Shown: piece by piece, positions 14,218 to 55,700 of the stretch
How the letters are laid out: every line of letters starts with the position of its first letter
Numbering within the stretch: position 1 is the stretch's first letter
Origin: Rhodothermales bacterium
GTDB lineage: Bacteria > Bacteroidota > Rhodothermia > Rhodothermales > UBA10348
Direction: 5' to 3'
NCBI GenBank assembly: GCA_024711125.1
Contig: JANJTM010000034.1
Location: 8,547 to 72,546 of the forward strand
Length of the DNA stretch: 64,000 nt
Made by a program: the position numbers and the translations under genes
Notes under the pieces: generated by a model
The model's database searches: none
What the model saw: the letters and a program-made list of their open reading frames with translations, nothing else
Told to the model about the DNA's origin: nothing

Positions 14218-14223
14218 CGCTCC

Positions 14224-38993: not shown

Positions 38994-39406
38994 TCGTCGT
39001 GGACACGGACGTCTGCGCCTATTTCTGGCTTCGCCACGACACCGAACGGACCCGTCTGGCCGACGAGGTCGGCAGGCGCGACGGGCTGTGGGCGGTACCG
39101 CCGATCTGGGTTTCGGAGTTCCGGAACGTGCTCGCGTCGTCCATCCGGTTCCGCGGAATGCCTCTGGATGAGGCGCAGCGCGTGGCAAGCGCCGCTGAAG
39201 CCGATCTCCTGGGCCGCATCGTTCCGGTCTACACGCCGTACGTGCTCCAGTTGGTCGAGCGGTCCGGCTGCACGGCTTACGATTGCGAATTCGTAGCTGC
39301 CGCCCAGGCGCTCGGAACGCGGCTCGTGACCGGCGATCGGGCCCTCGCGGCCGCGTTTCCCGAAACGGCGGTGACCATGGAGGATTTCGTGGGTGAAGCG
39401 GGATAG
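38990..39406 (+). CDS. vapC: PIN-domain (VapC-family) toxin
   Basis: MIVVDTD, WVSEFRNVL, CTAYDCEFVAAA, LVTGD; ATGA overlap with antitoxin. Confidence 0.9.
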   Translation: MIVVDTDVCAYFWLRHDTERTRLADEVGRRDGLWAVPPIWVSEFRNVLASSIRFRGMPLDEAQRVASAAEADLLGRIVPVYTPYVLQLVERSGCTAYDCEFVAAAQALGTRLVTGDRALAAAFPETAVTMEDFVGEAG

Positions 39407-39455
39407 GTCGCAGTACCTTGCCTGCGCTGCCCCCGAGAATTCCGGTTCCGTCCGT

Positions 39456-42212
39456 ATGGCCCTGGCCTCGCTCTCCCATTACCGCATCGAGGCCGAACTC
39501 GGCCGCGGCGGCATGGGCATCGTGTACCGCGCCTTCGACACGGAGCTCGATCGCGTCGTCGCGCTGAAAGTCCTTCCGCCCCATGCGCTTGCGAGCGCGG
39601 ATGACCGCGCGCGGTTCCAGCGGGAAGCGAAGGCGGCGGCGCGGCTGCACCACCCGCATATCGCCTCGGTCTTCGCGATCGGGGAGGCGCCCCTCGTGCC
39701 GGAAGGCGCCGAGTCGCCGGGGGCGGCCTCGTCGACGACCGCCGACGTCCGCCCGTTCATCGCGATGGAATTCGTCGACGGTGAATCGCTGGCTTCCCGC
39801 ATCGCACGCGGGCCACTGAAGCTCGAGGAGGCCGTCCGTCTTGCGGCCCAGATCGCGCAGGCGCTGGGTGCGGCGCACGAGGCGGGCATCGTGCACCGTG
39901 ACGTGAAGAGCGGCAACGTGATGCTGACGGCGAAGGGGGAAGCGAAGGTGCTCGATTTCGGCCTGGCGCAGACGGCGGCCTCGACGAAGCTGACGCGACT
40001 GGGCTCCACGCTCGGCACGGTCGCCTACATGAGTCCCGAGCAGGCGCGGGGAGAGGAGGTGGACGGCCGCAGCGACCTCTGGTCGGTCGGCGTGGCGCTC
40101 TACGAGATGATCGCCGGGCGGCTCCCCTTCGTCGCCGACTACGAGCAGGCGACGCTGTACGGGATCCTGAACCAGGACCCCGAACCGCTGACGGCCGTGC
40201 GCACCGGGGTGCCGATGGAACTCGAGGGCATCGTCGGCAAGCTCCTGCGCAAGGAGGCCCGACTCCGGTACCAGACGGCCGCCGACCTCCTGGCCGACCT
40301 CGAAACGGTCGCGGGGACCCTCAAGTCGGGGTCCTCGGCCGCCCGCTCCTCCGTCCATTCGGCCATTCGCGCGTCGGCCGCCGGGCTCGACGCGACGCCT
40401 GCACAGGCCCCGGCGCCCGACGTGCCCTCCCGCCAGGACCTGGTGCGCACCGGTACCGCCCGCTGGCGACGCTACGCCCTGTGGTTCGGGTTTGTCGGCC
40501 TGCTGTCCGGATCGCTCGCGACGGCGACCCTGCTTCGGACGGGTCGATCAACAGGCGCCGGCCCGACGGGCGACGTGGTGCGATCGACCATCCTGCTTCC
40601 GCCCGACATGCCGCTTCAGCTCGTCGGCGATGCCCTGGGCTCGCAGATCAACGCCCTCGACCTCTCTGCGGACGGTTCGATGCTCGTGTATTCCGCCCGA
40701 ACGGGAGCCGACACCCGGCTGGTACTGCGCGACATGAGGACCGCGACCTTCCGGCGGCTGGAGGAGACGACAGGCGCCCGAAATCCCTCGTTCTCGCCCG
40801 ACGGCCGCTCGATCGCGTACATCTCCGGCAACGGGGTCTACCGGGTGTCCGTCGATGGAGGGCGACCGGAATTCGTGACCGAGAATTCGGACGGCGGCGG
40901 GATGCGCTGGGGCCGGGACGGAATGATCTACGTCGTCGACCTCCAGGGAAAACGCGTGGTCCGCGTGACGCCCGAGGGCGAGCGGGAGGACCTGATACCG
41001 GATGGTTCCTGCGGCTGCGCGATGCCCTCCCTGGCGCCCGGCAGGTTCGGACCGGTGGTCTCGGGTCGGGACCAGGAGTGGGTGGGACGGATCGTCGACG
41101 GACGCATCGACACCACGACGATCCGCGGAAACCACGCCACGTTCCACGAGGCCGGATTCGTACTCTATGCGCGTACCGGGGTGCTGATGGCCTCCCGGTG
41201 GGATCCGTCAACCGGCGCGATCGGCACCGAAGACCTCCCGGTCGTCGACAGCCTTCGCACCGGGACGGTCATGCGGTCGGGTCACTACGCGGTTTCGTCG
41301 GGCGGAACGCTGGTTTACGCCAGGGGGGCGCCGCCCGGGATCGTGAATCTCGTGATCCGGGAGGCGGACGGCTCCGAGACGCCGATCCCCCTTCCGCCCG
41401 GCGTATACGGGCCGGTGGACCTGTCGCCGGACGAGCGCCGCCTGTTGGTGACCAGCTACGATGCTGGCGGTAAACTGGTCATCGCGGATCTCGTCTCGGG
41501 GAGCCGGCAGTTCGTGGCGCCGGACGCCGAGGCACGGAGCGCGATCTGGGCATCGGACGCGGAATCGATCGTGTACTCCCGGCGCGTGGGCGATCGATGG
41601 GAAATCGTTCGCGTCCGCACGACGGGGTCGGGCGAACCGGAGCGGATCGCGGAGGCGGATGTCCTGGTGCGTCCAAGCGCCATGTCAAGTGATGGTCGCT
41701 GGCTGGCGTACGAACGACAGCGACAATCCGGCCTGGTCGTGAGAAACCTGTCCGACGGGTCCGAAACCGTGATCTCGGAACCGGGAATCAGCTACTTCGC
41801 AGCCGATTTCACGCCGGACGGCCGGTTCGTGGCCTACACGAAGATCGGAGCACAGGGATCGATGGTCGCCGTCGCCCCGGTTCCGCCGACGGGCGAGGAG
41901 TGGATCGTATCGGCCGGGGATGGCGAGGAGCCCGAGTGGCTTCCCGACCGGGACGGCTTCGTATTCCGCAGGTCGACGCAGTGGTTCGTCGTGGACGTGA
42001 ACCCGGGCGGCGGGAGGCCGGCCTTTTCCGAGCCGCGCCTGCTCTTTTCGGGTCCCTGGGTGAACATCGCGGGGATGGAATACCGGATGATGTCCGGCAG
42101 TCGGGCCGTGCTTCAGCGCCCCGTGAACGTCACGGAGACGACCTCTCGCATCGAGGTCATCAGTGATTTCTTCGTCGAACTGGATCGACTGCTGGGCGAT
42201 CTCCGGAACTAG
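39456..42212 (+). CDS. Ser/Thr protein kinase + TM + PD40 propeller (kinase 4)
   Basis: HYRIEAELGRGGMG, HRDVKSGN, DFG, YMSPE, TM, PSFSPDGRSIAY. Confidence 0.95.
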   Translation: MALASLSHYRIEAELGRGGMGIVYRAFDTELDRVVALKVLPPHALASADDRARFQREAKAAARLHHPHIASVFAIGEAPLVPEGAESPGAASSTTADVRPFIAMEFVDGESLASRIARGPLKLEEAVRLAAQIAQALGAAHEAGIVHRDVKSGNVMLTAKGEAKVLDFGLAQTAASTKLTRLGSTLGTVAYMSPEQARGEEVDGRSDLWSVGVALYEMIAGRLPFVADYEQATLYGILNQDPEPLTAVRTGVPMELEGIVGKLLRKEARLRYQTAADLLADLETVAGTLKSGSSAARSSVHSAIRASAAGLDATPAQAPAPDVPSRQDLVRTGTARWRRYALWFGFVGLLSGSLATATLLRTGRSTGAGPTGDVVRSTILLPPDMPLQLVGDALGSQINALDLSADGSMLVYSARTGADTRLVLRDMRTATFRRLEETTGARNPSFSPDGRSIAYISGNGVYRVSVDGGRPEFVTENSDGGGMRWGRDGMIYVVDLQGKRVVRVTPEGEREDLIPDGSCGCAMPSLAPGRFGPVVSGRDQEWVGRIVDGRIDTTTIRGNHATFHEAGFVLYARTGVLMASRWDPSTGAIGTEDLPVVDSLRTGTVMRSGHYAVSSGGTLVYARGAPPGIVNLVIREADGSETPIPLPPGVYGPVDLSPDERRLLVTSYDAGGKLVIADLVSGSRQFVAPDAEARSAIWASDAESIVYSRRVGDRWEIVRVRTTGSGEPERIAEADVLVRPSAMSSDGRWLAYERQRQSGLVVRNLSDGSETVISEPGISYFAADFTPDGRFVAYTKIGAQGSMVAVAPVPPTGEEWIVSAGDGEEPEWLPDRDGFVFRRSTQWFVVDVNPGGGRPAFSEPRLLFSGPWVNIAGMEYRMMSGSRAVLQRPVNVTETTSRIEVISDFFVELDRLLGDLRN

Positions 42213-42220
42213 CCCAAGGC

Positions 42221-43579
42221 TCAGCAACCCAGGTCGGCCCGGGCCTGGGCATCATTCGCCGGTACGCATCCACCCGCCGGGAGCGACGTCGGCTGATACC
42301 GCAGGAGGTCCGGGTCGCGCAGGGCGTGCTCGAGGAAGGCGGTCAACGCCGAAACCTCGTCGGCGGTGAGGTGGAGCGGCTTGAACCGCGGTTCCAGTCG
42401 ACCCGACGGCAGCGGTACCGCGGGGATCCCGTCATTGTAGTATTCGACCACTTCGCGAATCGTTCGGAAAGATCCCCCGTGGCCGTAGAACGGCGAGTCC
42501 GAGAGGTTGTACAGCTGCGGCACCTTGTACTTGAATTCGTCCTGCTCGGCGCCGTTGAAGCCGCCGCGGCCGCGCGATGGCGGCAAGGGCCTCACGGACT
42601 CGGAAATCGGCATGTCGGGCATGCCGATCGCGTAGAACGCCATCGAGTTGAGCGCCGGCCCCGAGTGGCACTCCTCGCACTTCGCCTTGCCGAAGAAGAG
42701 AATCGCACCCTGCTTCTCCTGGATGGTCATTGCACCCGTCTCGCCGCGCAGCCACCGCTGGAACGGGGCGCGGTTGGCCACCAGGGTCCGCTCGTACGCG
42801 GCGATCGCGAGGCCCGTCTTCTCGAGCGAAATCGGTTCGCCCGGGTAGGCCGCGTCCCACAGGGCCTGGTAGGCGGCGTGGGACGCGATCGGCCACCGGG
42901 TCATGTCGTCCGAACGATGTTCGGTCAGCGCGGCGATCGCCTGGGATTCCACGCCCTCGTAGCCCAGCAGGTTGATGCCCTCGAGCGTGCCGGGAATCCA
43001 TCGGCCCGACGTGGGCGCGTTCGGGCCCTTGGCACCCATGCGTCCGTCCCACATCATGGCCTGCTGGTACGCGACGTGCAGCACGCTCGGCGAGCGGACC
43101 GGTTGTACGTCCACGTCGTCGACCGGGAACGCGGGATCGGCGAGTCTCGCTTCGCCCCGCGTGCCCCAGCCGCTTCCGCCTTCCCCGATGGCCTGGATGC
43201 GGCCGGCCTGGAAGCCGGCCCGGGCGTGGTGACAGGTCGCGCAGGAGAACGTTCCCGTACGCTCCGGGTGCCTGGGGCGCGTCGAGAGGCTCGGATCGTG
43301 GAACAGCACCCGCCCGAGGGCCACCTTGGCCGCCGTGACCGGATTCTTCGGATCCTGCGGAATGGATGCCCAGTCCCCGTCGTCCGGCAACTGGAAGTTG
43401 TCCACGAAACGCTGGCCGTCAAGCGTCAGGATCGCGGTGAGCGAATCGTCCAGCGCGGCTTCGTCCACGAGGTCGCCCGGGCCGGAGACGCCGCCGCCGC
43501 ATCCCGAGACGACGGCAGCGAGGACCACGACGCCCGCGGCGAGCAGGCCCCCGAAGTCAGCGCGGAGTGTTCGGATCAT
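42221..43579 (-). CDS. Di-heme cytochrome c peroxidase/MauG family lipoprotein
   Basis: KVALGRVLFHDP, SCATCH, WDGR, CEECH, YKVPQLYNL..SPFYGHGG; lipobox VSGC. Confidence 0.9.
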   Translation of the reverse strand: MIRTLRADFGGLLAAGVVVLAAVVSGCGGGVSGPGDLVDEAALDDSLTAILTLDGQRFVDNFQLPDDGDWASIPQDPKNPVTAAKVALGRVLFHDPSLSTRPRHPERTGTFSCATCHHARAGFQAGRIQAIGEGGSGWGTRGEARLADPAFPVDDVDVQPVRSPSVLHVAYQQAMMWDGRMGAKGPNAPTSGRWIPGTLEGINLLGYEGVESQAIAALTEHRSDDMTRWPIASHAAYQALWDAAYPGEPISLEKTGLAIAAYERTLVANRAPFQRWLRGETGAMTIQEKQGAILFFGKAKCEECHSGPALNSMAFYAIGMPDMPISESVRPLPPSRGRGGFNGAEQDEFKYKVPQLYNLSDSPFYGHGGSFRTIREVVEYYNDGIPAVPLPSGRLEPRFKPLHLTADEVSALTAFLEHALRDPDLLRYQPTSLPAGGCVPANDAQARADLGC

Positions 43580-44306
43580 CGGGGTTATTGATGACGACGA
43601 AGCGCCAGACCGGCGACCAGGCGGAGACCCCCGCGTGGTTTCGCGACCGGATGCGCCAGAAGTACTCGTATCCCTTGACCAGCCGGTCGAGATGCTGCGT
43701 CGGACCGGGTATGCCGCGCATGTCGGCGTCCCGGCGCACGAAGATGTCCTCCTGGGCTACCTGCAGATCGTAGGAGAGGGCGCCTTCGACGGGGGTCCAC
43801 TCGACGTCGAGCTGCTCGGGTAGGCCGATCGTATCGTGGGGAGGCCACACCGGGTACGGGACGGCGGCTACATGCACTTCGCGTGCCGGAACGAAGGTCC
43901 ACTCGGCCGACCAGTCGCTCGTGCCGGCCTCATTCCGTGCGCGCACCCGCCAGCAGTATTCCCGGCCGACCTCGAGGCCGGTTACCACGTACGTCGGCAA
44001 CTGCAGGTCCGAGACGACGGTCACCAGGTCGGTGAACGACGCGTTCCGCGCGATGACCACTTCGTAGATCGTACCGGGCGCCTCGGCGGTCCAGCGCAGT
44101 TCGACGGCGTTCTCGACGTCGCCTGAACCGTTGACGGGCGCGACCAACCGCGGAACGCCGGGTGCGAGCGTCGGATCATCGTCGACGGGAGATTGGCTGT
44201 CGCACGCCGCCATCAGTACAGCGGCCGAGAGCACCAGGATAGCGGCGGCTCCGCGGGCTCGGGCGACGGCGCGGAGCGGGACGGGCAAACGGAGGACGGG
44301 ATCCAT
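43557..44306 (-). CDS. Lipoprotein with two fibronectin type III-like domains
   Basis: Lipobox MAAC; two repeats of W..Y..Q/VIA..F...Y.WR(V/I)R.RN.AG.S.WS..W.F. Confidence 0.8.
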   Translation of the reverse strand: MDPVLRLPVPLRAVARARGAAAILVLSAAVLMAACDSQSPVDDDPTLAPGVPRLVAPVNGSGDVENAVELRWTAEAPGTIYEVVIARNASFTDLVTVVSDLQLPTYVVTGLEVGREYCWRVRARNEAGTSDWSAEWTFVPAREVHVAAVPYPVWPPHDTIGLPEQLDVEWTPVEGALSYDLQVAQEDIFVRRDADMRGIPGPTQHLDRLVKGYEYFWRIRSRNHAGVSAWSPVWRFVVINNPDDPNTPR

Positions 44307-44389
44307 GGCGGGGTTCGGAAACAGGTCACGCAGCAACCTGACACCTGGGCGCACGGATCCAAGATACTTCGCTTTTGCCCTTTGATTTT

Positions 44390-44416
44390 CCTACACTTAT
44401 GTAGGGTTATCCCCTA
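44390..44416. promoter_or_regulatory. Overlapping inverted repeats, putative transcription-factor site
   Basis: CCTACA-CTTA-TGTAGG (44390-44405) and TAGGG-TTATC-CCCTA (44402-44416) in an AT-rich gap upstream of the FN3/peroxidase pair. Confidence 0.4.
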
Positions 44417-44432
44417 TACGACAAGCCACCTT

Positions 44433-45200
44433 TTACCGTGCCGGCGTGAGGCGACCCAGGTCGTCGGGCGCATCGAGCGGCTGCATCCGCGCGATCCAAC
44501 CGTCCCCGTACGGATCGTCAACGAGAAGGGAGGCACGTTCCGCAAGAAGTGCATTCGTCTCGAGCACCTGCCCGGCGATCGGGGTCCACGAGACGTAGGG
44601 CCATCCGTTGTCGCCGACGACCCGCACCAGCACATCGCCCTGGACCAGCGGGAACGCCACCGTGGGCAGGTCCACCGAGGTGATCATCCCGGTCGTGCGG
44701 CCGAAGACGTCGGAGACGCCCACCAGCGCCGTGCCGTCCGCCCGCATCCGGACCCAGCTCTGCACGCCGAGGTAGCCCGAAACCCCTGCTCCGGGCGGAT
44801 GGGGTACCCGGACTTCGGGCGGGAGAGCCAGGAATTTCGCCGCCCGGTGTACGAGGCTGCGTGCCTCCTCGAACGTGAACGGCTTCGACAGGAATCCGAA
44901 TGCACCGCCCTGGAGCGACTCCACGATGTTTTCGCTGGTCGCATAGCCGCTCATCAGCACGAACGTGCGCCCGGGGCCCGCGGCGCGCTGAAGCAGCTCC
45001 AATCCGGACAGGCCCGGCAGCTTCAGGTCCACGACCACCAGGCCCGGACGTCCGGTCTCGAGCAACTCGAGTCCGATTTCGGCGTCCGGAGCGGTCGTCA
45101 CCTCGAAGCCGCCGGACGAGAGGACGCGCCGCAGGGCCTCGACGATCACCGGTTCGTCGTCGATGACCAGTACCGCGGGCCTGTCAGTTGCGGGCGTCAT
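44433..45200 (-). CDS. Receiver domain fused to GcvH-like domain lacking the lipoyl lysine
   Basis: REC: VIDDEP, VVDLKLPG, MSGY, SKPF; C-terminal SWVRM...VGVSD...TPIAGQVLETN...DDPYGDGWIARM; no ESVK motif. Confidence 0.85.
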   Translation of the reverse strand: MTPATDRPAVLVIDDEPVIVEALRRVLSSGGFEVTTAPDAEIGLELLETGRPGLVVVDLKLPGLSGLELLQRAAGPGRTFVLMSGYATSENIVESLQGGAFGFLSKPFTFEEARSLVHRAAKFLALPPEVRVPHPPGAGVSGYLGVQSWVRMRADGTALVGVSDVFGRTTGMITSVDLPTVAFPLVQGDVLVRVVGDNGWPYVSWTPIAGQVLETNALLAERASLLVDDPYGDGWIARMQPLDAPDDLGRLTPAR

Positions 45201-46741
45201 TCGGACGGTTGCACGGTGGGTGCGGGCGGGCGTGGGGTCGTGCCGGACGGCTCGGAAACCGGAAGCGTGATGACGAATTCGGTTCCGACCCCTTCCTGGC
45301 TATGGACGTGGATCGAGCCGTGATGGCTCTCGACGATGCCCCAGACGATGGCGAGCCCGAGGCCGTTCCCCTTCTGGCCCTTCGTCGTATAGAACGGCTC
45401 GAAGATCTTGGTCAGCCGGTCGCCGGGCATGCCGCACCCGGTGTCGGCGACGGATAACACGACCCGCTCGGGGGTGGGCGAGTCGCCTTCCGGCCGGGTC
45501 CGGATCGTGACCGTTCCGCCCTCCCTGGGCATGGCGTCGGCGGCGTTCACCAGGAGATTCACCAGCACCTGCTGCAGCTGGTTGCCGTCTGCCATCAGGG
45601 CGGGAAGGTCCTCCCGCAGGTCCATCACGAGGCGGATCCGGTGCAGCGCAAACTGGTTGCGCACGATCGAGCCCGAGCGGTAAATGATCTCGCTGAGGTG
45701 GACCTGCTTCTTCTCGGGCACCGACTGTCGCGAGAAGTCGAGCAGGCTCTTGACGATCTCGCGGCACCGCTTGGTCTCGCGCACGACCACGTCGAGGTCG
45801 TCCTTGAGCTCGGGATACTCGTCGGCCCGCGCGGCGAGGAAGCTCGCATACGTCAGGACGCCCGTCAGCGGATTGTTGATCTCGTGCGCCACGCCGGCCG
45901 CCAGGCGGCCGACCGAGGCGAGTTTGTCCGACTGGACGAGCTGGCGCTGCGCCTCGGCGAGCTTCTCGGTCATGCCGTTGAACGACTGCGCCAGCCGTCC
46001 CAGTTCGTCGTCGTTCGTGACGGGAACGCGGTGCTTCATATCGCCGCCCGCCACCTGTTGGGTGGCCGCGACGAGGACCGAGACCCTGCGAAGGACATAC
46101 CGTTCGACGAAGTACCAGAGGATGAGGCTGATGGTCAGCACGGCCGCGATCATGAGCAGGATCAACTGCAGTCCGCTGGCCTTCTGCTGCCGATCCAGCG
46201 CGTCCAACGGCACCGTGATGTCCAGGACGCCGAGGACGGTCTGATCCGAGTCGTGGGCATGGCACTCGCTCTGCCAGCAGGAGGGCTCGTTGTAGATCGG
46301 GTTGATGATGCCCAGCATCCGGTTCCCGTCGGGGCCGTCAAAAACCCGGGTGCGGTCCCGGATGGACAGGCTCTCGAGGGGCCGGTCTGCTGCATGGCAC
46401 GCGTAACATGCCTCGGTATTCATGTCGACCAGCGTTCCGACATCCGCCGAATCGGTCGACAGGATGATCTCGCCCTCCTTGTTGAAAATGCGGACCTTGT
46501 CGATGGACTCCTGCGCGCCTATCGTCGAGATGATCTGGTGGATCGACTCGCGTTGGTTCAGCAGCATGTCGTAGCGCGTGCTGCTGCGCACGGTCTCCGA
46601 GAGCTGCTGCGCGAAACTCTCGGCGTCTGCCAGCGCCAGGCGCGAATAGGACCGCAGGACGAGAATCGCGGCCAGTCCGGTCACTACGGCGGCCGATACG
46701 CCGACGGTGACCATCAGGCGGTAGCTGAGGCGCGATCTCAC
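45197..46741 (-). CDS. Sensor histidine kinase with periplasmic c-type heme motifs and HAMP
   Basis: Two TMs flanking CYACH and CWQSECH; DELGRLAQSFN HAMP; GVAHEINNPL; DTGCG; FYTTK; GNGLGL. Confidence 0.92.
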   Translation of the reverse strand: MRSRLSYRLMVTVGVSAAVVTGLAAILVLRSYSRLALADAESFAQQLSETVRSSTRYDMLLNQRESIHQIISTIGAQESIDKVRIFNKEGEIILSTDSADVGTLVDMNTEACYACHAADRPLESLSIRDRTRVFDGPDGNRMLGIINPIYNEPSCWQSECHAHDSDQTVLGVLDITVPLDALDRQQKASGLQLILLMIAAVLTISLILWYFVERYVLRRVSVLVAATQQVAGGDMKHRVPVTNDDELGRLAQSFNGMTEKLAEAQRQLVQSDKLASVGRLAAGVAHEINNPLTGVLTYASFLAARADEYPELKDDLDVVVRETKRCREIVKSLLDFSRQSVPEKKQVHLSEIIYRSGSIVRNQFALHRIRLVMDLREDLPALMADGNQLQQVLVNLLVNAADAMPREGGTVTIRTRPEGDSPTPERVVLSVADTGCGMPGDRLTKIFEPFYTTKGQKGNGLGLAIVWGIVESHHGSIHVHSQEGVGTEFVITLPVSEPSGTTPRPPAPTVQPSE

Positions 46742-46787
46742 GTGCGTACGCCGCGGCGTGACGAGTGTCCCGGGTCCGTTCTCGGAG

Positions 46788-46913
46788 TCATGTGCGCTTT
46801 TCGGTCGCGTTCATGTACCGAACGAAAAACACGAACAGGATCAGGAAACAGATCAGCAGGATGTACTCCAGCCCTTTCGTCTCGAAGATGTTGACGTAGG
46901 TGAATGACTCCAT
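46788..46913 (-). CDS. 41-aa single-TM peptide, HmcD-like
   Basis: Not in ORF track. Manual translation MESFTYVNIFETKGLEYILLICFLILFVFFVRYMNATEKRT*; lies right after the NrfD gene, as HmcD follows HmcC. Confidence 0.7.
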   Translation of the reverse strand: MESFTYVNIFETKGLEYILLICFLILFVFFVRYMNATEKRT

Positions 46914-46949
46914 GGCGGTGTGGGAACGGCCGAATGCGGGGATGCCGTG

Positions 46950-48200
46950 TCAGGCGGTTTCTACGAGCCTGGCCGCCGGAACGCCGTCCGCGGTGTGCGC
47001 GCGCGCAGCCCTCGGCCGTGGGTAGAAGTTCATGCGGGTGACGAACCAGCGGAAAACCCAGACCTCGACGAGGACGACGGTCAGGCTGACCACGATTTCC
47101 ATCCACGTGGGATAATACCGGTTGACCGACTCCCAGTTGAACGCGATCAGCGATACGTTCAGGCGATTGATGAGCACCCCGAGCAGCGACAGCCAGGCTG
47201 CCGTCTGGACGATGCCCAGGCTGCGGTGCCTGTAGCCGAGGGCGAACAGCAGGCACGGCAGCAGCGTCAGGCCGAACACTTCGACGAGGTACCAGAGCCC
47301 CCAACCGGTTCCGAGCAGGTCCCAATGCCCCTCGTGGAGGAAGAGCAGGAGCTTGAAGAAATAGTAGGCGAAGGACGCGATCGCGGCACCCTTGGCGAGC
47401 CCGAACAGGATTGCTCTCGACTGCGCTTCCGGTATCCCGATGTGCTCCTTGAGGTACCGACCGCTGAGCGTGCCCTCGACGATCACCAGCGAGATGCCCG
47501 CGAAGATGCTCGATACGAAGAACAGGATGGGGATGAACTCGGAGAACCACAGCGGGTGGATCTTGGGCTTCGCCATGAGGAACAGCGCGCCCAGTCCGGA
47601 CTGGTGCAGGAACGAAAGCGTGATACCGAACACCACCAGCCCGAGGGTCATCGCATACAGGACCCGGTAGGCCTTCTTCGCGTCCAGCCACTCGGCCACG
47701 ACCGGCGATACCTCGAGGAACTGCGCGATGATGTAGAGCAGGAAATGCCAGGCGACGAGAAAGAGGACCGAGTTGTATCCGAAGTCGTTGCCGATGATGG
47801 GGTTGAGGATGTTCCAGGGCCGCCCCAGTTCGAGGATGAGCGCCCCGGCGTAAAAGACGTACGCGAGGAACCCGTTGAGCACCGTCACGCGGATGATCGG
47901 CTTGTACTTCTCGAGCCGCATCACGTAGACCGTGAAGCACAGGGCATACGCACCGCCCGCGAAAGCCACGCCGGTGATCACGTTGAAGCCCTTCCACACG
48001 CCCCAGGCATAGTCCTGGTTGAGGTTCGTCACCGACCCGAGCCCGTAGATGAACCGGTATACCAGGATGACCATACCGACCACGATGATCGGGATCGAGA
48101 TCATGTTGAACGGCGTCCAGAACGGCGGCCGCGGCTTCATCTCGTTCCAGATGAAGCGGAAGGTGCCCTGTACCGGGGGGGAGGTGTGCGTAGCCGACAT
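46950..48200 (-). CDS. NrfD/PsrC family integral membrane subunit (HmcC/HybB-like)
   Basis: GLGSVTNLNQDYAWG, GVAFAGGAY, ELGRPW, LSFLHQSGLGALF...KIHPLW, YYPTWME. Confidence 0.9.
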   Translation of the reverse strand: MSATHTSPPVQGTFRFIWNEMKPRPPFWTPFNMISIPIIVVGMVILVYRFIYGLGSVTNLNQDYAWGVWKGFNVITGVAFAGGAYALCFTVYVMRLEKYKPIIRVTVLNGFLAYVFYAGALILELGRPWNILNPIIGNDFGYNSVLFLVAWHFLLYIIAQFLEVSPVVAEWLDAKKAYRVLYAMTLGLVVFGITLSFLHQSGLGALFLMAKPKIHPLWFSEFIPILFFVSSIFAGISLVIVEGTLSGRYLKEHIGIPEAQSRAILFGLAKGAAIASFAYYFFKLLLFLHEGHWDLLGTGWGLWYLVEVFGLTLLPCLLFALGYRHRSLGIVQTAAWLSLLGVLINRLNVSLIAFNWESVNRYYPTWMEIVVSLTVVLVEVWVFRWFVTRMNFYPRPRAARAHTADGVPAARLVETA

Positions 48201-48201
48201 C

Positions 48202-49104
48202 TCAGTGGGCCGCTTGGTGATCGGTGGTTTCGGCCACGACCTTCGGGTCGGGTCCCGTGCCGGAACCGTCCCGATCGGTGAGCTGGCTCAGGCCGTACAG
48301 GAGCGCGGGCAGGCCGAAGAAGACGACCGGCACGGCGTACAGGAAGTCCCTGGTGTATTCCGGGTAAGGCGTCGTGCCGAGGTCGGTACGGAACCCGATC
48401 TGTTCGAACGGAACCGCCGACAGGTACAGCCACCCGGTTCCGCCCGCTTCGAACTCCCCGTAGATCTTGTGGACGTATTTGTCGGGGTTGGTGTAGATGC
48501 GCTTGCGCGCGATCTCCATCAGTTCCCGCTTGGTGCCGAACGTGAGCGCGTCGGTCGGGCACGACGTGACACAGGCCGGACGCTGCCCCTCCTGCAGCCG
48601 CTCCCAGCACAGGTTGCACTTCTGGATGCGCGGATTCCAGTGGTCGTATTCGCATTTCGGAATGTCGAACGGACACGAGATCATGCAGTAGCGGCACCCC
48701 ATGCACTTGTCCGACTGCCAGATTACCGGGCCCGTCTCGGTCTTCTTCATGGCGTTCGTCAGGCAGGCGGCAGCGCAGGCAGGCTGCCAGCAATGCATGC
48801 ACTGCTTCTTGACGAACACCTCCCCGGCGTCGGTATCGAACCGGTTGACGACGGTCCACGCCGTCTCGCTCGTGGTACGTACGGCCTCGAGCGCGCCGTC
48901 GGTTTTCGGGTCGGGCACGGGCATGTTGTGCGCCATCGCGCACGCGACCTCGCAGGAGCGGCACCCGATGCATCGGGTGGTATCGACGAGCACGCCGATG
49001 AACTCCTCCGGCTTGTGCTCCTGGGTATCCGCGGCGGCCGAGCGTGCGCCCGCGGCGGTAGCGCAGGCCACGCCGGCCGTCTTGAGGAAGTTTCTGCGAT
49101 CCAT
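48202..49104 (-). CDS. Tat-exported 4x[4Fe-4S] ferredoxin subunit (HmcB/HybA-like)
   Basis: MDRRNFLK; CIGCRSCEVAC, CMHC..PAC..AC, CMGCRYCMISCP, CNLC...PACVTSCP; C-terminal TM. Confidence 0.92.
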   Translation of the reverse strand: MDRRNFLKTAGVACATAAGARSAAADTQEHKPEEFIGVLVDTTRCIGCRSCEVACAMAHNMPVPDPKTDGALEAVRTTSETAWTVVNRFDTDAGEVFVKKQCMHCWQPACAAACLTNAMKKTETGPVIWQSDKCMGCRYCMISCPFDIPKCEYDHWNPRIQKCNLCWERLQEGQRPACVTSCPTDALTFGTKRELMEIARKRIYTNPDKYVHKIYGEFEAGGTGWLYLSAVPFEQIGFRTDLGTTPYPEYTRDFLYAVPVVFFGLPALLYGLSQLTDRDGSGTGPDPKVVAETTDHQAAH

Positions 49105-49112
49105 GGTTCAGG

Positions 49113-49640
49113 TCAGTTCGTGCCGCCCCGCGCCGTCGCAGGGGCGTCATGGCAGAACAGGCAACCGTCGGCGGCGTCGGCCCCCGTTTCCTGCTCGTGG
49201 CAGGTCCAGCAGGTCTCGTGCACGACCACCTTGGTGCTCATGAGCTGGTCGTGGGCGCCGTCGGCGACTTTCGGGTGGCACTCCACGCAGGCAAGCGGGG
49301 CCAGTCGCTCTTCGCCCCCGCGTTCGTGGCACAACGCGCAATCCACGCGCAGTCCCTCGAAGTAGGTCTCGTGGGGCGTGATCAGACGGCCGGCGTTCGT
49401 CTCGTGGTGACAGTCGACGCACGCGATGGCCAGCTCCTCGAAGTGCTGGTAGTGCGAGAACCGGGCTTCGCCCCAACCGGGCCACGCACCCGGATCGCCG
49501 GGACGCACGGACGTGGAATCGACCGTGGCTTCGCTCGGCAGGGCCGGGTCCTGGCCCGGGACCCACACCGCGACGGCAGCGACGGCCGCAAGCCCGAGCA
49601 GCCCCACGATCAGTCCGGAGACCCGGGACGGCGCGTTCAT
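49113..49640 (-). CDS. Membrane-anchored multiheme cytochrome c3-like protein (5 CxxCH)
   Basis: N-terminal TM; FSHYQH; CVDCHH, CALCH, CVECH, CWTCH, CLFCH. Confidence 0.88.
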   Translation of the reverse strand: MNAPSRVSGLIVGLLGLAAVAAVAVWVPGQDPALPSEATVDSTSVRPGDPGAWPGWGEARFSHYQHFEELAIACVDCHHETNAGRLITPHETYFEGLRVDCALCHERGGEERLAPLACVECHPKVADGAHDQLMSTKVVVHETCWTCHEQETGADAADGCLFCHDAPATARGGTN

Positions 49641-50773
49641 GCCGGCTGGAGCGTCTTCTGGATGGCTTCCCATGTCGATTCCTCGTCGTTCTTGCGCTCT
49701 CCGAGCGGTCCCTCGCGGTCCGCCGCTGCCGCGCGTGCCGCCTCGTACCGTGCAATCTGCTGGTCGTACCACGATTCGGCGTCGGCCCCGATGCGCAGAC
49801 CGCCGAGTTCGGTGGCCAACCGTGCCGGCTCGATCCAGCACACCCAGCCCGACTCGAAGGGACGCAGGTTGACCAGCTCGGGGTGGTGGTGCAACTCGGC
49901 GTTGACGGCCACAACCTTACCGCTCACCGGGGACGGCACGGCCAGCCGCCTGCCGTTCCGTACGATCGCGAAGAGGGGGTCACCCTTGAGTACCGTGAAG
50001 GCGGTATCGGGCACCTCGACCGAATCGACCTCTCCGAAGAGCTTCTGGATGAAGTCGTCCACGCCCACCTGGCACAGTCCGTTCGGATGCACGCCGACCC
50101 AGGCGTGTCCTTCGCCGATGAACAGGCCCGACGGAACGTTGAACTCGCGCGGGGACGCCGATGCGCGCCGCGAGGGCGTCACGATGCGCACGTGGGGACG
50201 CTGCGCACGCTCCAGCCGATCCTGGCGGCGGATGAGCGATTTACCCACGAAGGCCACCAGTTCTTCGGCCGTGAACGGCTTCTGCACGTAGTCGGTCGCG
50301 CCGTACTTCATGCAGTCGACCGCCGTCTCTATCGTCGCGAATCCCGTGATCACGATGATGTCGATGTCGGGGCGCAGGTGCTTGACGCCCTTCACGACGT
50401 CCAGGCCGTCCATCACCGGCATCTTGAGGTCGGTGAAAACGAAATCGTAGTCGTGTTTCTTGACGAGGCCGAGCGCCTCGGGACCCGACTCGACCGTGTC
50501 GATCGCGTACCCCTCGAGAACGAGGATCTTGCGGAAGCTGTCGAGGATGATCGCTTCGTCGTCCACGGCGAGGATCCGGGCTTTCGGTTCGGCGGGCTCG
50601 GCGCGCTTCAGCGTGGGCGCCTCGTCGGAGACGTCGAGACGGAGGCCGATATCGAGGGCTTCGGCCCTCTCGCGTCGCAGCCTGGCCTCATGCCGCTGCC
50701 TGAGAATCAAGCGAATGCCAACGTCCACCACCAGGAAGGCGATGACCGTTACGATTACCATCAGGATGACCAT
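49637..50773 (-). CDS. TM-anchored receiver + GcvH-like protein lacking the lipoyl lysine
   Basis: N-terminal TM; REC AVDDE, FTDLKMP, ITGF, QKPF; GHAWV...VGVDDF...SPVSGKVVAVN..L...PELVN..PFESGWVC. Confidence 0.88.
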   Translation of the reverse strand: MVILMVIVTVIAFLVVDVGIRLILRQRHEARLRRERAEALDIGLRLDVSDEAPTLKRAEPAEPKARILAVDDEAIILDSFRKILVLEGYAIDTVESGPEALGLVKKHDYDFVFTDLKMPVMDGLDVVKGVKHLRPDIDIIVITGFATIETAVDCMKYGATDYVQKPFTAEELVAFVGKSLIRRQDRLERAQRPHVRIVTPSRRASASPREFNVPSGLFIGEGHAWVGVHPNGLCQVGVDDFIQKLFGEVDSVEVPDTAFTVLKGDPLFAIVRNGRRLAVPSPVSGKVVAVNAELHHHPELVNLRPFESGWVCWIEPARLATELGGLRIGADAESWYDQQIARYEAARAAAADREGPLGERKNDEESTWEAIQKTLQPA

Positions 50774-51147
50774 GGCGCTTGCCCTTCCGTATGGTGGGGC
50801 GGTCTCGCGGCCGCCGGAGTTGACTCTGCGTGTGCGGACCTCTCGGGCACCGGTACGGGCCTCTGGAGTCCTAAAAAAACGTACGCTCCCAGCGAAACGG
50901 TTCGTGTGAGCAGACTCCTGCAGGGCCTGTCGGTGGCGCCGTTCATCGGCTGCGGGAGGTCTTCGGTCCCACGCGTAGGGCGGTTTCGCGTCCGGCCATG
51001 CACCGATTCGCCGGGACTCCCTGGGGAAATCCACTACGGCCCGGACGGAGGACGAGCCACGGGCGCGGGCACGGGCGTACTACCGATTGCGCCGCATCGG
51101 CTTTTCCCGTTCCTTGATCGGTGTCGCCGAACCTTTTGGACCACGTC

Positions 51148-52449
51148 ATGCAGGACCTTTCCCGACGCGGCTTTCTCGGCCGCACGATCGCGGCGGCCGC
51201 CGTTCCGGTTCTTTCGCTCGCGCCGCGTTCCCGGCCGCAAGCACCGCTTGGCAGGGCCACGGCCCTTCCCGGTGGCCCCGGCGAACGCTGGGTGGAGCGC
51301 GCCCGGGCCGAGATTCCCGCCGCCACCAACTACGGGTATTTCCAGACGGCCGGCATAGGACCGAGCCCGACCCCGGTCCTGGACGTGGTGTCTGCCGTGC
51401 TGCACCGCCAGAACCGGGGCCCCGCGGCGCCGGAGGTCGCATCGGTCATCTCGCCGATCGAACCTGACCTTCGGGCGCACCTCGCGCGGGCGTTCGGCGC
51501 ACGCGAAAACGAGGTGGCGCTCACGCACTCGACCTCCGAAGGCCTCAACATCGTGTCGTGGGCCTTCAACTGGAAGGAGGGGGACGAGGTGGTCGTCACC
51601 AACCAGGAGCACCCCTCCAACGTCATCCCGTGGTACACCCTGCGCGACCGCTTCGGCGTGCGCACGAGGGTCGTCGATTTTTCGGCCGGAACCGACCTGG
51701 TCGGGCAGATCCGCGCGGCGCTGAATGCCCGCACGCGGCTCGTTTCGATTCCGCACGTCTCGCGGAACAACGGCCGGCGCGTCACGGCCGACGAATCGGC
51801 GGCATTGGCCGACATGCTGCGGAAGGCGGGCGTGTACTACCACCTCGACGGCGCGCAGGGCCCGGGCTGCGTGCCCTTCGATTTTGCGGCGCTCGGCTGC
51901 GATGCCTACTCGACGTGCGGACACAAGTGGCTGCTCGGTCCGAAGGGCACCGGCGCCTTCTTCGTAAGGGAGGCCATGCTCGAGCGCACCCTGATGTCGT
52001 GGACGGGCGCCCACTCCCACGCCACGATGGACTACGAGGGCGGCTACACGCTGCTTCCATCGGCCGCCCGTTTCGAGTTCGGAACGCGCGCCCACGCCGA
52101 TTTCGCGGGTTTCGACGCGGCGGTCTCCTGGATGGAAGCGATCGGATTCGACCGCATCCACGGGCGGATCGACGCGCTCGTCGAGTACGCCATCGAAAAG
52201 GCACGGTCCCTGCGCCGGTTCGGGATTGCCTCGCCCGTCGAGGCCGGGGCGCGTTCGGGCGTGTTCGTGCTCCGGCTTCCCGAGGACGCGGATGCCGGTG
52301 CGCTGTATCACCGCCTGGCAGGCGAGAAGGACATCCTCGCTTCGCCGGTGCGGGAGGCGCGGGACCTCCGGATCGCCATCCACTTCTTCAACACGACCGA
52401 CGAGATCGACGAGGCCTTCGATGCGATCGAGCAGTTCACGCGCGGCTGA
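51148..52449 (+). CDS. Tat-exported class V PLP enzyme (CefD/C-S lyase-like)
   Basis: SRRGFL Tat motif; STSEGLN, EHPSN, DGAQ, CGHKWLLGPKGTG, RFEFGT. Confidence 0.88.
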   Translation: MQDLSRRGFLGRTIAAAAVPVLSLAPRSRPQAPLGRATALPGGPGERWVERARAEIPAATNYGYFQTAGIGPSPTPVLDVVSAVLHRQNRGPAAPEVASVISPIEPDLRAHLARAFGARENEVALTHSTSEGLNIVSWAFNWKEGDEVVVTNQEHPSNVIPWYTLRDRFGVRTRVVDFSAGTDLVGQIRAALNARTRLVSIPHVSRNNGRRVTADESAALADMLRKAGVYYHLDGAQGPGCVPFDFAALGCDAYSTCGHKWLLGPKGTGAFFVREAMLERTLMSWTGAHSHATMDYEGGYTLLPSAARFEFGTRAHADFAGFDAAVSWMEAIGFDRIHGRIDALVEYAIEKARSLRRFGIASPVEAGARSGVFVLRLPEDADAGALYHRLAGEKDILASPVREARDLRIAIHFFNTTDEIDEAFDAIEQFTRG

Positions 52450-52652: not shown

Positions 52653-55600
52653 ATGATCGGAACGACCGTCCGGCAGTACCACGTCCTCGAGCAACTCGGA
52701 CAGGGCGGAATGGGCGTGGTCTACCGCGCCCACGACACGCGTCTCGAGCGCGACGTCGCGCTCAAGTTCCTTCCGGCCCAGTTCTCGCACGACGAGCAGG
52801 CCAAGGCCCGGTTCATGCGCGAGGCCCGGGCGGCCTCGGGCCTCGACCATCCGAACATCTGCACGATCCACGAGATCGGCGAGGCCGACGACGGCCGGCT
52901 CTTCCTCGCGATGCCCCTCTACGACGGGCAGACGATGAAGGACCGGCTGGAGGCCGGTCCGCTGGACGTGCCGACGGCGCTGGGCATCGCGTACCAGGTC
53001 GCGGGCGGCCTCGAGCGGTCGCACGAGGCGGGCATCGTGCACCGGGACGTGAAGCCCGCCAACGTGATGATCACGAGCCGGGGCCGCGCCGTGGTGCTCG
53101 ATTTCGGCGTCGCCAAGCTCGAAGCGTCGAGCGACCTGACGAAGATGGGTTCGACGGTCGGAACCACGGCCTACATGAGCCCCGAGCAGGCGAGGGGAGA
53201 CGCGGTCGACGCCCGGAGCGACGTGTGGTCGCTCGGCGTGGTGCTCTACGAGATGGTCGCGGGCCGGCGCCCGTTCACGGGCAGCTATGAACAGGCGATC
53301 GTCTACGCGATCATCAACCAGGATCCGGACGACCTCGATTCGGTGGCTTCCCGGCTGCCGGACGGCGCCGGCGACCTGCTGAAGTCGATGCTCGCCAAGG
53401 ATCCGGACCGGCGCCCGGCCTCCATGGCCGAGGTCGTGACCGCGCTGGCGCCCTTCGCCGGCGCGTCTGCGGCTACCGCCGAGCGCACGTCGTCGGGCCG
53501 CACGGCGCCGTCGCGTGCGACCGCTCCGGCGCGCGCGCCCGGCGATGCGGCCGCCCGGCCGTCGTCACGACCCCGATGGCTCATCCCGGTCGGCGGCGCC
53601 CTCGTCACGGCCGTCGTCATGGCCGCGATCTGGTTCATGGTCCCGCGGGGCGCCGGCGAGGAGGACGGACTTCCGCCCGACCTCGTGGCCGTCATGCCGT
53701 TCGCGGTGAACGGGGACGAGTCGCTCGCCTACCTGCGCGAGGGGCTGGTCAACCTGATCGGGACGCGGCTCGACGGGGCCGGTCCGCTGACCGTCGTCGA
53801 TCCGAACGCCGTCATCGGCAGCTCGGAGTCTTTCGGTGCGGAGGCCATCACGCCAGACGAGGCGCGTGGGGTCGCGGAATCGCTCGGCGCGGGCAGTTTC
53901 GTGCTGGGTTCGATCACCACGCTGGCCGGCCAGATCCAGCTGGCAGCCGATTTCTACGGGCCGGACGACACGGTGCGGGTCCGGGTCACGGTCGACGGGG
54001 AGGACCACCTTCCGAAGGGCGTCGACGAGGTCGCGCTCCAGCTCGTGAAGTCGCGCCTCAAGGCCGGGACGGAAGCGCTGTCCACGGCGGCCGCGGGCAA
54101 TACGGTGTCGTACGAGGCCCTCAAGGCCTACCTGAAGGGCGAGGAGTATTTCCGCACGCTGGACTACGACAAGGCCCACGACGCCTTCAAGGAGGCCATT
54201 GCGGCCGATTCCACCTTTGCCCTGGCGTGGTATCGCCTTGCCCGGGCCGTGCGCTGGGGCGGAGGAGACTACACGACGTCGGCGCTCTTCAGGGCGCGGC
54301 GGGAGGCACTCGACCACGCTCTGGCCGGTCGCAGCGAGCTGCCGGAGCGGTTCCAGATGCTGATCGAGGCGGCCGATGCCTTCGAGAAGGGGGACGTGAA
54401 TCGGGCCCGGGAACTGTACCAGCGCCGTCTCGAGCGTGATCCGAACGATGTCGAGGCGCTGTCGGAATACGCCGACCTGACGTACGCCTACAACCCGCTG
54501 GTCGGAAAGTCGTCGCAGGAGGCCGTGCCCGTCTTTGAACGGCTGCTGGCCATCGACGCGGACAACGGCACGGCCCTCTGGAACCTGGCCATGCTCGCGG
54601 GACAGAGGGACGACCTCGCGGCGTTCGATTCGATCATGGGGCGGTTGCTCGACAACCCGCGAGCACAGAACGGCAATTCGGACTTCGCCCGGCAATTCCG
54701 GGTGCTCGCGGCTCACGGTGTCGATTCGTTGGACGCGGCCCTGGGTCGCGTGTCGAACGTGGAGAACCACGTCACCCTCGCGAATCTCCTGGCGGGCTTT
54801 ACGCACCGGTACGACGTCGCCCGCGCCATCGGGGAGCGCCTCGCAAAGGGCGACTACACCGAGCAGACCCGCCGTAACGGACGCTGGATCCAGTCGGTAC
54901 TGGCGAGCGTGGAGGGCCGCCCGAAGGCCTCCGACGCCCTGGCAGAGGACGATCCCGGCCGCGATTTCGGCCGGTTGCTCGTCGACCGGGTCATGCGCGA
55001 CGCGGTACCGCAGTTCGCGGCCCCCCGGGAGCGGCTCGAGAAGCTCAAGGCGATGACCGAGGCCTGGGATACGACCACCCAGCATCTCGACCCGCACAGC
55101 GTCATCGAGGGGCACTACGGGGAGATCCGGGCCTACCTGTTGGGCATCCTGGCGGTGCGGCTCGGCGACGACGCGGGGCTGGCGCGGCAGATCGCCTACC
55201 TGAGGTCCCGGTCCGGCGCGACGAGCCCAGGCGAGCCGCCGTACGTCTTCGCGCGCACGCTCGAGGGGCTCAAGGACTGGCGGAACGGGCAGCTCGACGC
55301 GGCGCTCGCCTCGTTCGACAACGCGCAGATGTACGTCAACGACGTATGCGCCTCGTGCTCTAACGCCCACTCGCAGACGCTCAACCGCTTCGTACGGGCC
55401 GAAATCCTGTTCGAGCAGGGGCGCCACGAGGACGCGCTCGGCTGGTACGGCTCGCTCTTCGACGGGGACCAGTGGTGGGGCGCGGTGCACCTCGGCATCT
55501 CCACGGTGCGTTCGGCCGAGATTGCCGAGGCGGCGGGCAATACGGCCGAGGCCGTGCGGCTGTACGGGAAGTTCCTCGATCTCTGGAAGAACGCCGAGCC

Positions 55601-55700
55601 GGAGTTGCAGCCGCTGGTCGAGGATGCGCGGCGGCGCATGGATCAGCTCGTCGCGGCCGGCTCGAGGGAACCCGGGCGAACGGTGACGCCGGGCGGGTGA
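52653..55700 (+). CDS. Ser/Thr protein kinase + TM + TolB_N-like + TPR domain (kinase 5)
   Basis: [37 protein letters not shown]...[13 protein letters not shown]; helical TPR-like repeats ending [14 protein letters not shown]. Confidence 0.93.
   Translation: [1015 protein letters not shown]

Follow-up and report, generated by a model that had tools for sequence, protein, structure and literature searches.

An HmcBCD-type quinone module linked to receiver-GcvH proteins and a haem-motif kinase in a Rhodothermales bacterium

The closest described relatives of the system considered here are small quinone-linked membrane modules. NhcABCD, a TpIc3:quinone oxidoreductase, consists of a nine-haem cytochrome, a protein with four [4Fe-4S] clusters, an NrfD-like subunit and a small subunit, with no catalytic or cytoplasmic subunit in the parts of the paper drawn on here; NhcC genes are reported there from Deltaproteobacteria, Clostridia, Acidobacteria, Bacteroidetes, Chlorobi and other groups (PMC8076601). 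Stand-alone iron-sulphur (FeS)/HybB-like/cytochrome modules without conserved neighbours are also in print (bioRxiv 10.1101/2023.11.02.564894, in extract), and NetBCD has been named an inner-membrane quinol dehydrogenase (PMC8805035, in extract). We analysed a 64,000-nt stretch of DNA from a Rhodothermales bacterium (GenBank assembly GCA_024711125.1, contig JANJTM010000034.1, positions 8,547 to 72,546), referred to below as the window, in which an operon at 44433-50773 encodes a redox core of this kind together with a histidine kinase and two proteins that join a response-regulator receiver (REC) to a domain resembling the glycine cleavage H protein (GcvH). The original prediction for this operon, made from the sequence alone, took it as a premise that cytochrome/FeS/NrfD trios normally need a catalytic partner. 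This is overstated, as NhcABCD, the stand-alone modules and NetBCD go without one in the extracts cited above, and the absence of a catalytic subunit in such cores is ordinary. What we describe instead is that GcvH-fold proteins, here phosphorylatable and accompanied by a haem kinase, are coupled to a core of HmcBCD type, an arrangement that is conserved, widespread and, so far as our searches reached, undescribed.

The operon comprises seven co-directional genes on the minus strand, delimited with a list of open reading frames (ORFs) and with Pfam and NCBIfam scans; the intergenic distances in transcription order are -37, 8, 1, 36, 46 and -4 nt. The first gene (49637..50773) encodes TM-REC-GcvH, with a membrane helix, an NtrC-type receiver, an H-protein-fold domain without the lipoyl lysine, and C-terminal helices. 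It is followed by genes for a membrane-anchored, periplasmic pentahaem cytochrome of c3/c7 type (49113..49673), an HmcB-like, tail-anchored 4x[4Fe-4S] protein exported by the twin-arginine (Tat) pathway (48202..49104; TAT_signal, Fer4_11), an HmcC-like quinone-interacting membrane subunit of the NrfD family (46950..48200; Pfam NrfD) and a single-helix peptide of 41 aa in the HmcD position (46788..46913). The last two genes encode a sensor histidine kinase with a periplasmic dihaem-c domain and an NtrB/AtoS-type transmitter (45197..46741; HAMP, HisKA, HATPase_c) and a soluble REC-GcvH protein, again without the lipoyl lysine (44433..45200; Response_reg, GCV_H), whose first 4 nt overlap the end of the kinase gene. 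ORFs, Pfam and NCBIfam thus bear out the seven-gene description in the original prediction, with the correction that the haem motifs of the kinase number two. Gene set and order are repeated in other phyla (for example in loci L010, L084, L090, L102 and L116, of which L102 lies on the same contig as L021 and L116 on the same contig as L023) and in G004, a relative from the same family, so the operon is more than a chance arrangement. A sigma-70 promoter scan of 44000-51300 returned no promoter-like sites, sigma-54 patterns not being part of that search, and the same interval holds four terminator-like sites where 3.5 are expected.

Judged from sequence, the redox part appears to be a core of HmcB/HmcC/HmcD type, joined by a pentahaem cytochrome that is anchored in the membrane. 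The cytochrome has an N-terminal hydrophobic helix of signal-anchor type and five CxxCH motifs, and matches Cytochrome_C7 (33.4 bits) and Cytochrom_CIII (31.1 bits) in Pfam. The FeS protein carries four Cys clusters and a C-terminal transmembrane segment at residues 254-272. Its top NCBIfam model is HmcB (335 bits, below the cut-off of 420), and that of the NrfD protein is HmcC (356 bits, below the cut-off of 550), with HybB at 223 bits. Scores below these cut-offs are also found in L139, an operon with a true HmcA, where the corresponding proteins reach 349.9 bits for HmcB and 415.9 bits for HmcC. The gene order in L139 is HmcA (586.6 bits against a cut-off of 400), FeS, NrfD, small peptide, NarI/Fer4, CCG and HdrA-like. 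The 41-aa peptide of the window has one hydrophobic segment with basic residues behind it and matches no family, and it is homologous to the peptides at the HmcD position of L139 and of a second hmcA-type operon, L158. Because its homologue occupies that position in the hmc-type operon L139, we place the window peptide at the HmcD position.

The two receiver proteins are alike in their domains. TM-REC-GcvH scores 104 bits for Response_reg and 69.2 bits for GCV_H and has one N-terminal transmembrane helix; the soluble protein scores 79.5 and 52.9 bits, respectively, and has neither a transmembrane segment nor a cysteine. An AlphaFold2 (AF2) model of TM-REC-GcvH (pLDDT 82.6) consists of a helix at residues 2-42, the receiver at 56-191, the GcvH fold at 194-325 and helices at 330-352 and 363-375; in Foldseek comparisons it matches the E. 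coli H-protein (3a8i_E) with a TM-score of 0.93 and an rmsd of 1.2, and its receiver superposes on those of NtrX and NtrC1. Residues D71, D72, D115, T143 and K165 of this protein are invariant in 22 homologues, as are D14, D15, D58 and K106 of the soluble protein in 21. Neither protein was found to have a DNA-binding or enzymatic domain (Pfam, AF2 model, Foldseek), as had been claimed. The GcvH-like domains of the window score 53-63 bits where the NCBIfam GcvH cut-offs are 115-117, and the genome encodes a separate canonical GcvH on another contig (C61; 148.6 bits) that keeps the usual lysine. At the place of the lipoyl lysine in the hairpin, the two window proteins have R and W, and 145 family members have K, R, H, Y or S, so the lipoyl lysine is not conserved; as read from the alignment, the spacing from the hairpin to the following Pro is also one residue shorter than in the canonical GcvH of the genome. 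Proteins of this family carry the generic database names 'CheY-like chemotaxis protein/glycine cleavage system H lipoate-binding protein', 'response regulator', 'glycine cleavage system H protein family protein' or 'hypothetical protein', and 46 of 120 clusters among the matches listed hold both domains. Some REC-type loci have a third receiver-GcvH gene, a second TM-REC-GcvH behind the soluble one (L010, 9121-10278; L090, 14000-15223).

The kinase has two transmembrane helices, with a CxxCH motif at residue 112 and a Cx4CH motif at residue 155 between them. Both motifs, together with H163 and M59, are invariant in all 12 aligned homologues, and haem loading and redox sensing by this protein are therefore predicted from the motifs. 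The best match of the sensor profile in the PDB is 3b42_A (E 0.005), with the haem motif regions aligned, and Pfam PF21563 scores 20.4 bits, under its cut-off of 27. On the cytoplasmic side, both the HisKA H-box and HATPase_c are present in Pfam scans, and the top NCBIfam models are AtoS and ZraS, both below cut-off. Related kinases (L012, L010, L021 and others) are about 620 aa long as against 514 aa in the window, and tblastn alignments break near window residues 422-425, a sign that the relatives have about 100 additional aa in their ATPase region. The haem kinase also has full-length relatives (311-364 bits) in Desulfuromonadales and Geobacter loci (L049, L077, L030, L035, L045, L048 and L053) that have a second sensor-like ORF and no GcvH-like gene; FeS and NrfD genes are present in L049 and L077.

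To characterize the genomic setting of the receiver-GcvH proteins we collected 80 loci by alignment search, taking one genome per species, of which 29 encode a full-length REC-GcvH. An NrfD match is present in 18 of these 29 loci, so the predicted co-occurrence of REC-GcvH fusions with FeS/NrfD genes holds, and two more (L019, L020) end at a contig edge inside or just before the kinase. Among the 18, the gene order of the window is found in L009, L010, L021 and L023. The other order is FeS, NrfD, multihaem cytochrome, kinase, REC-GcvH and TM-REC-GcvH, and here the NrfD protein is HybB-like (in L012, 347.9 bits for HybB against 262.1 for HmcC). The kinase and REC-GcvH set is thus linked also to a second, HybB-like NrfD lineage. 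Three loci (L005, L013 and L016, at about 1-4300 on the minus strand) contain, on the opposite strand, a divergent second copy in which a GcvH-like gene lacking the receiver is accompanied by FeS, NrfD and the beginning of another haem-sensor kinase gene.

The reverse search, from the NrfD alignment, gave the 80 closest loci, whose NrfD proteins are 53-67% identical to that of the window; L009 and L010 are common to both sets. Loci were typed with local hidden Markov models for the receiver and the GcvH-like domain, with haem-motif counts and with tblastn. We found that a GcvH-like gene without the conserved lipoyl lysine lies beside FeS-NrfD in 73 of the 80 loci. Fourteen are of the receiver-containing (REC) type, of which 13 have a gene for a 5- or 9-haem cytochrome. 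Where at least 4 kb is available on both sides, REC-type loci have a haem kinase in nine of nine cases and a long receiver-containing regulator in none of the nine. The remaining 59 are of a plain type: FeS is preceded by a receiver-less GcvH-like protein, usually bearing a transmembrane helix, and NrfD is followed by another. An ORF of more than 300 aa (mostly about 446 aa) that includes a receiver is found near 40 of the 59, its sigma-54 type being confirmed in L124 only, and at least 24 of the 59 have a kinase by our tblastn rule. Seven loci have no GcvH-like gene, among them L139 and L158 with 16-haem cytochromes, L144 and L156 with 11- to 13-haem cytochromes, and L091 and L148 with short flanks. 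Clustering of the 926 ORFs lying within 8 kb of NrfD recovered the same families (NrfD in 70 loci, FeS in 70, GcvH/REC in 66, kinase in 55), followed by a 181-aa family (35 loci), a PstS-TM-GcvH family (31) and the cytochrome (13).

A match to the 41-aa peptide directly follows NrfD in 61 of the 80 loci (tblastn). The match forms a small ORF of its own in 12 of the 14 REC-type loci and in five of the seven GcvH-less loci, including the hmcA-type operons L139 and L158, and lies within a GcvH-like ORF in 41 loci (40 of plain type, one of REC type). From these sequences, the peptide homologue in plain-type loci is best seen as anchoring a GcvH-fold protein to the membrane, in the place that HmcE/F take in classical operons.

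The plain type can be illustrated with L124, from the cultivated Maribellus luteus, in which the gene order is a 555-aa protein, FeS, NrfD, a 239-aa protein, the kinase and a regulator with REC, Sigma54_activat and HTH_8 domains. The 555-aa protein (7398-9065) has a signal, a periplasmic domain, a transmembrane helix and GCV_H, and the first 35 or so residues of the 239-aa protein are visibly homologous to the window peptide and are followed by GCV_H. The L124 kinase carries both haem motifs and is homologous to the window kinase over its full length, at 30% identity. The periplasmic domain of the 555-aa protein is modelled with a fold similar to that of PstS-type phosphate-binding proteins (AF2 pLDDT 77.8; Foldseek TM-scores of 0.66-0.75 to 4jwo and 1twy, at about 13% identity). 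Such an upstream GcvH-fold protein of Bacteroidales, with a PstS-like domain (an oxyanion-binding fold) before the transmembrane helix, is seen in L124 and 30 further loci. The 181-aa family, which is Peptidase_M54-like in L124 (15120-15665), lies after the long regulator gene there and in 34 further loci; it may reflect Bacteroidales synteny or be part of the unit.

Among 30 relatives of the bacterium (18 of the same family and 12 of the same order), a full-length TM-REC-GcvH was found in one, G004, at 65% identity, where the same seven genes lie in the same order without the genes that flank them in the window. In a quick NrfD tree, the window falls within a set of 19 rows (starred) that holds 14 of the 15 REC-type rows and is labelled with six phyla, and hmc-type rows are nested among plain-type rows. 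About a dozen phylum labels occur across the related loci. Given the single occurrence among 30 relatives and the spread of the REC-type set over six phyla, the module is accessory and probably mobile between lineages. DNA near-identical to 44433-50773 (at least half of the sampled words) is present in 11 runs from sediment, sludge and aquaculture metagenomes, which come from five of 11 coded studies among the matches listed; the source sample may be among these runs.

We also searched for catalytic partners. HmcE (NarI-like) and HmcF (CCG) are absent from the operon (ORFs, Pfam), and the module is single-copy in the genome. The other NrfD matches of this genome are on contigs C14, C49 and C59; on the first two of these, well-scoring Molybdopterin-family proteins are found 0.5-1.4 kb away, with a weak third Molybdopterin match on C32. 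For NiFeSe_Hases, a 486-aa ORF on C30 scores best, and the CCG proteins are on C68 and C15. Nothing in this search for an orphan catalytic subunit elsewhere in the genome suggests a partner for the module. Related loci were searched by tblastn with one hydrogenase and one molybdoenzyme query from the same genome, supplemented by Pfam scans of selected ORFs in L008, L012, L074, L124 and L139 and by ORF clustering; family models were not run on every ORF. Among the REC-GcvH loci, hydrogenase-like matches were found in L018 and L070 and molybdoenzyme matches in L042 and L054. Among the 80 NrfD loci, molybdoenzyme-like matches were found in three (L092, L127, L159), at least 5 kb from NrfD, and the single hydrogenase query matched none. 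In the clustering, the most frequent family beyond the module genes reaches at most four of 22 sources in the first set, and the second set has no recurrent catalytic family, the extras being only the 181-aa and PstS-TM-GcvH families. The statement in the original prediction that hydrogenase, molybdoenzyme and HmcE/F are missing from the operon is therefore correct, and tblastn and clustering show none recurring in homologous loci.

The genes around the operon in the window are of several kinds. Starting 78 nt past the module, two overlapping genes follow on the minus strand, one (43557-44354) for a protein with an fn3 domain and the other (42221-43579; CCP_MauG, 100.4 bits) for a di-haem cytochrome c peroxidase. 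Divergent from the module is a class-V aminotransferase gene (51121-52449, plus strand; 161 bits), whose product has an N-terminus that by eye resembles a twin-arginine signal. L012 also has a class-V aminotransferase near the module (13324-14454), on the opposite side and at 24% identity. Two genes for large Ser/Thr protein kinases bracket the region (39393-42212 and 52653-55700, both on the plus strand), one with PD40 beta-propeller repeats and the other with TPR.

Building on the observed gene content, domain make-up, conserved residues and conserved linkage, we tentatively favour, at somewhat less than an even chance, a reading in which an Nhc-like cytochrome:quinone wire has cytoplasmic GcvH-fold subunits that are phosphorylated by a periplasmic haem-redox kinase, giving post-translational control. 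The pentahaem cytochrome, the HmcB-like 4x[4Fe-4S] protein, the haem-less HmcC (NrfD) and the HmcD-like helix would form an electron wire from the periplasm to the quinone pool, itself without a substrate-converting subunit. GcvH-fold proteins without the lipoyl lysine would stand where classical Hmc has HmcE/F, and here both carry an NtrC-type receiver. The kinase would read the periplasmic redox state through its two c-type haems and phosphorylate both receiver-GcvH proteins, which may alter the way in which these proteins interact, through their GcvH-fold domains, with the cytoplasmic side of the core or with a recruited partner, so that electron flow would be tuned post-translationally and not via transcription. 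As the receiver must meet the ATP-dependent domain of the kinase, the GcvH-fold domains should lie on the cytoplasmic side. Phosphotransfer from the kinase to the receivers is suggested by the adjacency of the genes (the 4-nt overlap) and by their co-occurrence in all nine well-flanked loci. The kinase has a full-length homologue in the sigma-54-regulator cluster, the long regulator is missing from all nine well-flanked REC-type loci, the receivers are NtrC-like and their phospho-acceptors are invariant; together these suggest that the signal has been re-routed to the GcvH-fold proteins. A regulatory role would also fit the variation of inputs by lineage, in that the window proteins have a receiver that a dihaem kinase would serve, and one copy in Bacteroidales bears a PstS-like domain. 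The link of the kinase and REC-GcvH set to a second, HybB-like NrfD lineage counts in favour as well. The direction of electron flow and the effect on activity likewise belong to the proposed mechanism.

Several observations weigh against this reading. Contact between the GcvH-fold proteins and the core is something we infer from the sequences, a regulatory role for a GcvH-fold domain has no known precedent, and the domain has no cofactor or conserved Cys/His site save one family-specific Cys. The module is accessory, as the survey of relatives shows. The core can do without a GcvH-fold gene, as L101 has the kinase, the long REC regulator, the cytochrome, FeS, NrfD and the peptide but no GcvH gene. 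The domain in turn can work away from HmcBC, given that nine of the 29 full-length REC-GcvH loci have no NrfD in the available flank, that L008 couples REC-GcvH with a PAS kinase and no NrfD, and that in L074 (1229-8914) REC and GCV_H are fused to an HdrA-like flavoprotein with Fer4 in a 1013-aa protein, after which come a Fer4 protein, another HdrA-like protein and a REC-GCV_H protein of 530 aa. The NrfD-less loci, the pairing with unrelated kinases as in L008, and the HdrA-like fusion, which suggests a portable regulatory module, are what would be expected of a pure redox-sensing device, in which the core carries no meaningful respiratory flux but only brings the haems of the kinase into redox balance with quinones or with carriers in the periplasm, and REC-GcvH signals to cytoplasmic targets encoded elsewhere. 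The missing catalytic subunit, in the operon and in its homologues, and the soluble REC-GcvH without a membrane tether would suit such a device as well. We nevertheless consider it unlikely, although it deserves real weight: four FeS clusters and a pentahaem cytochrome would be heavy machinery for an antenna, and the FeS, NrfD and peptide have close homologues in a set of loci to which true hmcA operons belong (NrfD at the identities given above). Further, receiver-less GcvH-fold proteins stand beside FeS-NrfD in the 59 plain-type loci, 40 of them with a long REC regulator, so these proteins look like companions of the core, which favours a regulated respiratory module over a sensing-only device. 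The proposal of a redox signalling system is accordingly supported in part: the linkage of redox genes, kinase and REC-GcvH stands, and sensing alone is not favoured. Nor is the GcvH-like domain chiefly an output of response regulators, given that in those 59 loci it is receiver-less and mostly on a transmembrane helix.

The remaining explanations concern narrower points. The operon might be an ordinary regulated respiratory one, an Nhc-like core alone, with REC-GcvH proteins as phosphate sinks or as connectors that influence transcription indirectly by way of a DNA-binding partner elsewhere. In sister clusters a kinase of this kind does come with a transcriptional regulator, and transmitters of the AtoS/ZraS type, to which this one belongs, normally have sigma-54 activators as partners; however, the absence of a long REC regulator from every well-flanked REC-type locus speaks against it, and it leaves unexplained both the GcvH-fold genes at the core in 73 of 80 loci and the tether by an HmcD-like helix, so that we hold it to be improbable. 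By analogy, a GcvH-fold protein with lipoate or another swinging arm could take cytoplasmic electrons in place of HmcE/F. The H-protein fold (TM-score 0.93 to the E. coli protein), the Gly-Lys common at the hairpin in Bacteroidales members and the recurring link between GcvH-like domains and Hdr-type enzymes (L074) speak for such a carrier; lipoate-binding LbpA proteins belong to sHdr systems (bioRxiv 10.64898/2026.10.01.755906, in extract). Its lipoyl form was rejected on account of the variable hairpin residue, which is R and W in the window proteins. The shortened hairpin-Pro spacing and the lack of a redox cofactor connecting HmcC to the cytoplasm also argue against the carrier, and the missing cofactor motif together with the variable hairpin makes the GcvH-fold proteins unlikely electron carriers, so we regard this explanation as very improbable indeed. 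Compatible with the favoured reading of a kinase-controlled wire is a local role in which the wire would supply electrons from quinol to the di-haem cytochrome c peroxidase whose gene follows 78 nt downstream. The fn3 and CCP_MauG genes are directly next on the minus strand, but neither was found by the module in G004 or any other locus (tblastn, E 1e-10, all loci), and we give this role little credence.

A more specific extension of the kinase-controlled wire, speculative and rather unlikely as it stands, is that H-protein folds lacking the lipoyl lysine would form a novel class of regulatory subunits in NrfD-type quinone modules, tethered on the cytoplasmic side by HmcD or by a helix of their own, with a basic hairpin that would gate the cytoplasmic half-channel of HmcC or its quinone turnover under lineage-specific inputs (the haem kinase, or the PstS-like domain of Bacteroidales). 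This would amount to a signal-gated respiratory complex. If the favoured reading is right, the GcvH fold would be a new output domain in the response-regulator repertoire and an undescribed accessory subunit family of Hmc/Nhc-type (NrfD) modules, replacing HmcE/F in about a dozen labelled phyla. It would provide a testable case of two-component post-translational control of a respiratory complex and give meaning to many genes named 'glycine cleavage system H family protein' or 'hypothetical'. Experiments are feasible, as the receiver-less form has cultivated carriers, Maribellus luteus and M. mangrovi. Neither receiver-GcvH proteins nor GcvH-fold partners for modules of Hmc/Nhc type were the subject of any paper returned by full-text literature searches, in agreement with the view that the REC-GcvH/NrfD architecture had not been described, though supplementary tables may list related loci.

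Compared with known signalling proteins, the parts of the system are familiar and their combination is not. The kinase sensor resembles the periplasmic haem-c sensor domains of Geobacter chemoreceptors (3b42/PF21563) in being a periplasmic sensor with covalent haem motifs between two transmembrane helices. The match is remote, however; the window protein has two haem motifs, one of them Cx4CH, and its output is a histidine kinase and not a chemoreceptor. Transmitter and receivers are of the same sequence types as in the NtrB/NtrC-type systems AtoSC and ZraSR, but the window receivers are fused to a GcvH fold and not to an AAA+ and DNA-binding output. The GcvH-fold domains share fold and Pfam family with the glycine cleavage H protein and with LbpA of sHdr systems, from which they differ in the missing conserved lipoyl lysine, in scores below the GcvH cut-offs and in being membrane-tethered or receiver-fused. 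A response-regulator gene tied to an hmc-type operon has a parallel in rrf1/rrf2 downstream of hmc (Keon et al. 1997, as cited elsewhere), Rrf1 having been likened to single-domain CheY-like receivers (bioRxiv 10.64898/2026.06.30.735679, in extract).

Among redox modules, NhcABCD has the same kinds of subunit as the core described here, none of them cytoplasmic or catalytic in the text drawn on, and the job is likely to be the same. The cytochrome is pentahaem here and nine-haem there (the 9HemeCytC model scores 20.4 bits against 640), and the GcvH-fold partners and kinase found here are not mentioned for NhcABCD in that text, where the words 'kinase' and 'regulator' do not occur (PMC8076601). 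The stand-alone FeS/HybB-like/cytochrome modules and NetBCD are similar in being three- to four-gene, quinone-linked units with no conserved catalytic neighbour; the extracts report no conserved flanking genes for them, whereas GcvH-fold and haem-kinase genes are conserved here. HmcABCDEF of Desulfovibrio vulgaris shares with the window operon a Tat-exported, tail-anchored FeS protein, a HybB/NrfD-like subunit and a small hydrophobic peptide in the same order (Rossi et al. 1993, as cited in bioRxiv 10.1101/2023.11.02.564894, in extract), the likeness of the HmcD-position peptide being judged against the peptides of L139 and L158 and not against D. vulgaris HmcD. The window cytochrome has five haems where HmcA has sixteen (the HmcA model scores 17.4 bits against a cut-off of 400). 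In place of the NarI-like HmcE and CCG-type HmcF, the window operon has GcvH-fold proteins, and it carries the kinase and receivers within the operon itself.

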